Sequence record: OV696612
DNA: 50,143 nucleotides
Source: Escherichia phage Perceval
Direction: 5' to 3' (one strand)
Below are positions 27,300-28,036 of the stretch, in pieces; position 1 is the stretch's first letter, and each line of letters opens with the position of its first letter. A program made the translations under genes and the position numbers. The notes beneath the pieces were generated by a model. That model was given only the letters and a program-made list of their open reading frames with translations, had not been told where the DNA came from and did no database searches.

Positions 27300-27758
27300 C
27301 AAGTAATACGGCGAGCGATATGACGTGCCATGGGATATCCGCACCCAGCAGCATGTTGTCTCCACGATGTCCGCAGTTCGCTCATAATAGACATTCACTA
27401 CAGTTATAGTAGAAGGTATGCATGCTGCTGAGTGGGGAAAGTGTGAAAGAAAAGAAGACAGCTGCTTTGTTTGTCGTCACGTTTATCTTCATTGGCTATG
27501 CAAGTCGTAATACAAGGCGGGACAAAACTGAGACACATAAGGCCTCGCAATGGCTTGCAAGGCCACACATGTATTGAGATGTTAATAAAATGTAGACTTG
27601 TAATTTTGATATAAATGGTAGAGAAAATCTTTCCCCAAAATAAAAACGAACGTCAATGAAATCAAACGGTTGAATAAAGTTGATTTTGGCTAATACAAAG
27701 ACAAGAAAATAATATTTATGATTAAATATCAGCGAGTTGAATACATAATTTTTATATA

Positions 27759-27923
27759 CTGCTGCGCCATATGGGTTGGACTGAAGCGGCTGACCTGATT
27801 GTTAAAGGTATGGAAGGCGCAATCAACGCCAAGACCGTAACCTATGACTTCGAACGTCTGATGGAAGGCGCTAAACTGCTGAAATGTTCAGAGTTTGGTG
27901 ATGCGATCATCAAGAATATGTAA
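27759..27923 (+). other. icd: attP-associated 3' fragment of host isocitrate dehydrogenase gene (icd'), phage 21/e14-type attachment region
   Basis: Frame reads [54 protein letters not shown], the C-terminus of enterobacterial Icd with a few substitutions; abrupt onset of homology at about 27759 marks the likely core. Confidence 0.85.
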
Positions 27924-27946
27924 TCACTACATGTGTTAAATATTGA

Positions 27947-27975
27947 AACGGGCGTATAACACGCCCGTTGTTTTA
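27947..27975 (+). terminator. rho-independent terminator after icd' fragment
   Basis: AACGGGCGT-ATAAC-ACGCCCGTT followed by GTTTT. Confidence 0.7.
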
Positions 27976-27989
27976 TGATGATGTAAAAT

Positions 27990-28025
27990 CTTCCCCAAAA
28001 CTTTCCCCAAAACCCTTCCCCAAAA
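27990..28025 (+). repeat. three tandem CTTCCCCAAAA(C) repeats (candidate integrase arm-type binding sites)
   Basis: CTTCCCCAAAA x3 between icd' and int; a fourth copy TTTCCCCAAAAT at 27629-27641 on the other side of the core. Confidence 0.5.
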
Positions 28026-28036
28026 CTGGCTATTTT

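Follow-up and report, generated by a model that had tools for sequence, protein, structure and literature searches.

The integration of phage 21 and of the element e14 at icd is a classic case, and the phage 21-type icd system has been known since about 1990. In work by Wang and colleagues from 1997, the minimal attP of phage 21 reportedly comprised 366–418 bp and reached the outermost dodecamers of the site. Its large size is said to have been attributed to the interposed icd segment, and IHF is said to be required for phage 21 integration. Phage lambda integrates between gal and bio with a 15-bp core and replaces no gene.

In this study, we analyzed the corresponding region of a stretch of phage DNA with 50,143 nucleotides, which is called the window in its full length. 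The 701 bp from 27400 to 28100 share 98.1% identity with phage 21 (M61865, OL657228) and 99% with phage ev017, and public records at 98–99% identity carry annotations of the same features. With high confidence, we interpret the region as the attP belonging to a site-specific integration module of the phage 21 type, carried by a complete mosaic lambdoid genome. The feature as such is already known; the value of the analysis lies in the annotation, by which attP, core, arm sites and terminator are placed in this genome (Table 1), and in the prediction that lysogens sit in icd with an Icd that is intact but altered at its C-terminus.

Table 1. Positions of the attP elements and of neighboring genes in the window
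Feature	Position	Strand	Remarks
sitABCD, iron/manganese ABC transporter	22393-25842	-	b-region cargo
256-aa ORF	26529-27299	+	between sitA and attP; conserved in phage 21 and prophages as WP_000567449.1
Long hairpin	27533-27572	-	downstream of int, across the core
P-arm dodecamer CTTTCCCCAAAA	27629-27640	+	candidate Int arm-type site; 131 bp left of homology start
IHF-consensus site AATCAAACGGTTG	27660-27672	+	P arm; exact WATCAANNNNTTR; putative function
Second IHF-like site TATCAGCGAGTTG	27727-27739	+	one mismatch; adjoins core; putative function
Replacement 3' end of icd	27759-27923	+	54 codons plus stop; without own start signals
Identity block with host attB region	27760-27976		217 bp; icd 3' coding sequence and icd terminator
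Strand-exchange interval TGCTGCGCCA	27760-27769		core; includes the overlap region
Intrinsic terminator for the restored icd transcript	27947-27976	+	stem 27947-27969 plus T run
Three tandem P'-arm dodecamers	27989-28000, 28001-28012, 28014-28025	+	229-254 bp right of homology start
int, lambda-type tyrosine integrase	28037-29179	-	arm-binding N-terminal domain
xis, excisionase	29169-29405	-	overlaps int start; Pfam Exc, E = 6.7e-06, above gathering score

Components of the integration module

The window starts with GGGCGGCGACCTCG..., a lambda-type cohesive end. Over its left 25 kb, it shares about 97% identity with lambda-like phages, e.g. ev207, and over its right half 99% with phages 4A7 and 3W; it is collinear from end to end with virion-derived phage genomes. 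The cos-type start and these identities on both sides indicate that the window comprises the whole genome of a mosaic lambdoid phage, from cos to cos and in virion orientation. In such a genome, the gap between the non-essential b-region cargo and int is the expected place of attP. The sitABCD genes adjoin attP as cargo here, in phage 21 and in the resident prophages. The neighboring 256-aa ORF gave no Pfam match; it is likewise kept in phage 21 and in prophages. An Rfam scan of 27200–28200 returned only a sub-threshold tpke11 match on the terminator (20.8 bits versus a gathering score of 43), which was taken as chance.

The integrase carries an arm-binding domain (PF09003, Arm-DNA-bind_1, E = 1.8e-28, residues 1–71) and a catalytic domain (PF00589, Phage_integrase, E = 8.9e-24, residues 200–367) and thus belongs to the lambda-type heterobivalent tyrosine integrases. 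It is the orthologue of the phage 21 Int (OL657228; 377 of 380 residues identical), is identical over all 380 residues to the Int of the icd-resident prophages in strains LS4 and FXCREC028, and shares 60% identity with IntE of e14. An excisionase is annotated at the position of xis in the phage 21 record as well.

According to the original prediction, a 165-bp segment encodes the last approximately 54 residues of Icd and is followed by a terminator of its own, and alignment to the 3' end of icd had been proposed as a check. Translation confirmed the coding part: the reading frame ends with a stop codon at 27923, and the peptide is identical to the product of the phage 21 pseudogene, the matching segment being annotated as an icd pseudogene in both OL657228 and M61865. 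Beyond the first codon, the peptide differs from a native E. coli Icd C-terminus only by E410D and E414K (GDAIIKNM versus ...GEAIIENM); the K-12 Icd, whose end derives from e14, reads ...LMDGAK...GDAIIENM. The terminator consists of a 9-pair stem with 6 G-C pairs followed by GTTTTAT (−16.3 kcal/mol, z = −3.06), and the hairpin of the icd terminator is preserved in e14 by compensatory changes. For the alignment, positions 27560–28040 were used as megablast query, and the identity block (query coordinates 201–417) was matched in 5425 of 5426 complete E. coli genomes. Alignment to the empty attB, attL and attR showed that homology passes the icd stop codon, runs through the terminator and ends at 27976. 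The abrupt left edge expected at about 27759 was found, with a corrected position: at 27759 the phage has C where the host has A, and nucleotide identity begins at 27760.

Four exact copies of the dodecamer YYTTCCCCAAAA, all on the plus strand, flank the icd segment. They have the core TTCCCCAAAA in common, and the same four-copy family was recovered independently by a repeat finder; with up to one mismatch allowed, the 50-kb window held no further copy. By our own arithmetic, about 0.02 exact 12-mers of this degeneracy are expected per 50 kb on both strands, so that four copies within 400 bp are far beyond chance. As in phage 21, attP is bounded by a single dodecamer on the P-arm side and by three on the P' side, and the 397 bp spanned by the outermost copies (27629–28025) fit the minimal attP size reported for that phage. 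In phage 3W, the P-arm dodecamer is kept although the surrounding P arm diverges. The P arm holds one exact dodecamer only, whereas lambda has two arm sites there. When two mismatches were allowed in the search for a second P-arm dodecamer, the whole window gave 55 matches compared with 58 expected, i.e. chance level, and a degenerate candidate at 27684–27693 on the minus strand was therefore rejected as not credible.

The repeats flanking the segment had been put forward as candidate Int arm-type sites. All four were present, but the repeat unit had to be corrected to a 12-mer and the coordinates to those in Table 1. As for their role, the copies lie at the right positions and agree with the repeat annotation of phage 21 ('attP ... 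3 subsites P1P2P3; consensus YYTTCCCCAAAA' on the P' dodecamers), and e14 has another repeat, a 10-mer, at the same offsets. That the positions are fixed while the repeat sequence changes with the integrase makes them look like arm-type sites. From position, conservation, the comparison with e14 and the GenBank note, we infer that the N-terminal domain of Int binds the dodecamers. It is very unlikely that another protein, for example a host factor or Xis, binds them instead, or that they serve as signals in the transcripts of int or icd. Signals at the RNA level could indeed be situated where the P' copies are, between the terminator of icd and the stop codon of int. However, the arm-binding domain match in Int is strong, one P-arm and three P'-arm copies parallel the arm-site layout of lambda, and the co-variation of repeat and integrase at fixed positions argues in the same direction. 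Moreover, the P-arm copy is about 47 kb away from int in the prophage, as is more readily expected of a recombination site than of a transcript signal.

The P arm is AT-rich (27% G+C) and contains two IHF-like sites, which share the extended motif ATCAnnnnnGTTGAATA as read from the sequence. Exact WATCAANNNNTTR occurs only twice in the 50-kb window, once at 27660, and this site is kept in phage 3W, where only an N position is altered. On the P' side including the icd-derived segment (27740–28060), no match to the IHF consensus with up to one mismatch was found. Further to the left, the long hairpin (−23.5 kcal/mol, z = −4.3) gave a terminator-like match. The stretch 27446–27565 aligns with lambda 27399–27530, a part of the b region that we take to be the location of sib/tI. 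The hairpin is probably a retroregulator or terminator of int transcripts, and lambda-style retroregulation of int may be conserved despite the approximately 470 nt, including antisense icd, that lie between them. In the prophage state, hairpin and int are separated.

Junctions in icd-resident prophages

Junction structures were read from prophages in sequenced E. coli genomes with identical or near-identical Int. In strain WP7-S17-ESBL-01 (WP7), whose Int is closely related to that of the window and of the same length, rluE is followed by icd, the three dodecamers, int, xis and the remaining prophage, up to sitABCD, the 256-aa ORF, the P arm, an icd 3' pseudogene and iraM at the far end. LS4 with one prophage and FXCREC028 with two in tandem show the same arrangement from rluE, icd, the P' dodecamers and int to sitABCD, the P arm, an icd fragment and host DNA. 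In all three genomes, icd has 1251 bp, is intact without a pseudogene flag and ends in the phage segment beside int. For prophages with this kind of Int, the predicted integration within icd and restoration of the gene by a phage-borne 3' end are thus supported. An empty site with the order rluE, icd and iraM is present in strain ESY002. The P arm is joined to the icd 3' end in about 1462 of 5426 complete E. coli genomes, and prophages of this kind are therefore very common.

At all junctions examined, the three P' dodecamers are located at attL together with int and the single P dodecamer at attR, which identifies the repeats as arm elements and not as the crossover site.

Several further observations were made at these junctions. 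In FXCREC028 (NZ_CM135822.1), two apparently identical prophage copies lie in tandem at icd with an intact attP between them; the genes near both att ends share protein accessions, and the pair may be an assembly duplication. Five IMG/VR contigs hold hybrid junctions, in which the P arm and the core are of the phage 21 type and the adjoining P' arm, with GTTATCAAAA repeats, is of the e14 type. Such hybrids are to be expected when a phage 21-type prophage sits beside an e14-type element in icd. After the icd terminator, a third type of sequence (…CCATTATAAAATAACGTATCAAAAGTCAAG…) was present at attR of FXCREC028, at attR of LS4 and at one further junction; iraM is absent from the flank in these cases, which suggests that another icd-targeting element, with arm repeats of its own, has left a remnant here. 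Phage D2 (OM475427.1) was discarded as a variant attP: in this record, sequence from the 5' part of host icd follows directly upon the P-arm dodecamer. It is labeled 'partial genome', has Ns in the P' repeats and looks like a chimeric assembly made from lysogen reads.

Since an identical full-length site occurs inside a chromosome, between the FXCREC028 tandem copies, and viral contigs contain the hybrid junctions with an e14-type P' arm, the window could in principle be chromosomal and contain a prophage-host junction or an internal junction of tandem prophages. This reading is extremely unlikely: the window has a lambda-type cos start and is collinear with virion-derived phage genomes throughout, rluE, the icd 5' part and iraM are absent from its ORF lists, and the core is flanked by the phage P arm on the left and the phage P' arm on the right, as in phage 21 virion DNA. 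The notion that the triple dodecamer cluster is the crossover site and the icd fragment a passive relic of an old aberrant excision draws on the OL657228 record, which places the 'integration site attP' on the three repeats and calls the icd piece an unexpressed pseudogene. It can practically be dismissed: in every lysogen examined, attL, beside int, has all three repeats and attR has none; the switches between host and phage sequence are at 27760 on the left and 27976 on the right, outside the repeats; and the phage-borne fragment forms the working end of the intact icd ORF in lysogens.

Crossover interval and alleles of the icd end

For mapping of the crossover in the free attP, the phage allele was taken from the internal FXCREC028 junction between the tandem prophages, which represents pure attP. 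The mapping depends on the parental alleles, and the WP7 and IMG/VR junctions were uninformative in this respect. The attL of FXCREC028 has the phage allele from 27760 rightwards, including the phage-specific G at 27777, and the attR departs from it first at 27770 (T to C) and then at 27777, 27790, 27793 and beyond. LS4 shows the same pattern at attL and attR, and comparison of attL and attR of the K-12 e14 gave the same right bound. Because phage and host differ at 27759 and attR departs at 27770, the exchange takes place within the 10 bp from 27760 to 27769. Strand exchange is thus located at the 5' edge of the icd homology, where the original prediction had suspected the core.

This interval contains a synonymous dimorphism at icd codon 364 (Leu), which is read as TGCTGCG (CTG) or TGTTACG (TTA) with differences at 27762 and 27764. 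Both alleles were seen in host attB sites and in phage attP sites, and further polymorphic sites exist within 28 bp on either side, which would confound allele counts by megablast. In the four lysogens read (WP7, LS4, FXCREC028, K-12 e14), attL and attR share the codon-364 allele, a sample that is far too small to serve as a test and in which LS4 and FXCREC028, with the same prophage and the same host context, may not be independent. Any overlap region of 6–8 bp inside 27760–27769 includes 27764, and heterology in the overlap strongly inhibits lambda-type recombination. On these two grounds, the alleles could define lysogenization compatibility groups between icd-targeting phages and E. coli lineages, although we consider this rather doubtful. 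If true, hosts would escape and phages would track them via the core allele, and the range of hosts that a phage can lysogenize would be affected. The CTG/TTA core dimorphism is an only mildly new angle and may already have been described elsewhere.

The substitutions in the phage-borne Icd end had also been expected to mark lysogens. E410D and E414K are indeed present, but they failed as a marker of current lysogeny. Strain NT1N34 has an unoccupied rluE-icd-iraM site, yet carries phage-type nucleotides up to the end of the homology block; its Icd ends with GDAIIKNM and has the same protein accession as the Icd of lysogens. In WP7, the displaced icd fragment is phage-type, too. Due to this empty site and this displaced copy, the substitutions are regarded as a record of phage traffic and not of current lysogeny, and the phage-type icd 3' allele is an unreliable marker of the latter. 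The NT1N34 allele may be the scar of a past lysogeny resolved by homologous recombination, or a donor allele. A mosaic structure is apparent in the icd segments of the window, of phage 21 and of various junctions, as would result from homologous exchange between the 217-bp repeats.

For the reading as a phage 21-type attP, the following course of integration is proposed. The catalytic and core-binding domains of Int, a lambda-type heterobivalent tyrosine recombinase, act at the core at the left edge of the 217-bp icd copy, with strand exchange in TGCTGCGCCA. The N-terminal domain of Int would occupy the single YYTTCCCCAAAA dodecamer of the P arm and the three of the P' arm. Bending of the AT-rich P arm by IHF would help to fold the approximately 400-bp site. 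Integration cuts the host icd 165 bp before its end and joins the host 5' part to the phage-borne 3' end and terminator. Thereby, Icd remains intact with E410D and E414K, and the host's own icd 3' fragment is moved about 47–50 kb away to the other end of the prophage.

Comparison with phage 21, e14, lambda and other elements

The int-xis-attP module of phage 21 is nearly identical to that of the window. Its four dodecamers, their spacing and the terminator are identical to those of the window, sitABCD and the 256-aa ORF lie on the left in the same order, and OL657228 continues, as does the window, with the ICDH-like pseudogene, the terminator, the attP repeats, the tyrosine integrase and the excisionase. 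The icd segments show few synonymous differences, with the window being closer to native E. coli icd there, and the remaining genome is a different mosaic. In OL657228, the label 'integration site attP' is placed on the three P' dodecamers (27563–27599), while the genome announcement of phage 21 makes no mention of att. Judged from the junctions, this label marks the arm sites, with the crossover located about 230 bp to the left.

The cryptic prophage e14 of K-12 (intE/xisE, icd/icdC) uses the same attB in icd, brings the same 165-bp coding replacement with terminator, and its crossover interval comprises the same 10–11 bp as that of the window. The arm repeats differ. In e14, one GTTATCAAAA precedes the core by 128 bp and three copies of the GTTATCAAAA type follow from 233 bp downstream, whereas on the same counting the window has TTCCCCAAAA 128 bp upstream and 232 bp downstream; GTTATCAAAA-type repeats are absent from the arm positions of the window, so that its module is not of the e14 type. 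Unlike the window, e14 carries ymfD, ymfE and lit between int and attL. Based on the 60% identity of Int to IntE and the different arm repeat, the window belongs to the phage 21 specificity group and not to the e14 group.

Lambda shares with the window a heterobivalent Int with the same Pfam arm-binding domain, arm-type repeats on both sides of the core, an int gene facing att, a xis gene overlapping int and a homologous b-region hairpin segment left of att. The P' sites of lambda are about 83–123 bp from the core, compared with 229–254 bp in the window, where the distance is larger because the icd 3' end and the terminator are interposed. Integrative elements at the 3' part of tRNA or protein genes keep the target gene functional by a block of identity that extends from the crossover to the gene end (PMC10111431). 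The window shares the principle of such 3'-end-replacing elements and, since its target is a protein-coding housekeeping gene, the replacement brings along amino acid changes, namely E410D and E414K.
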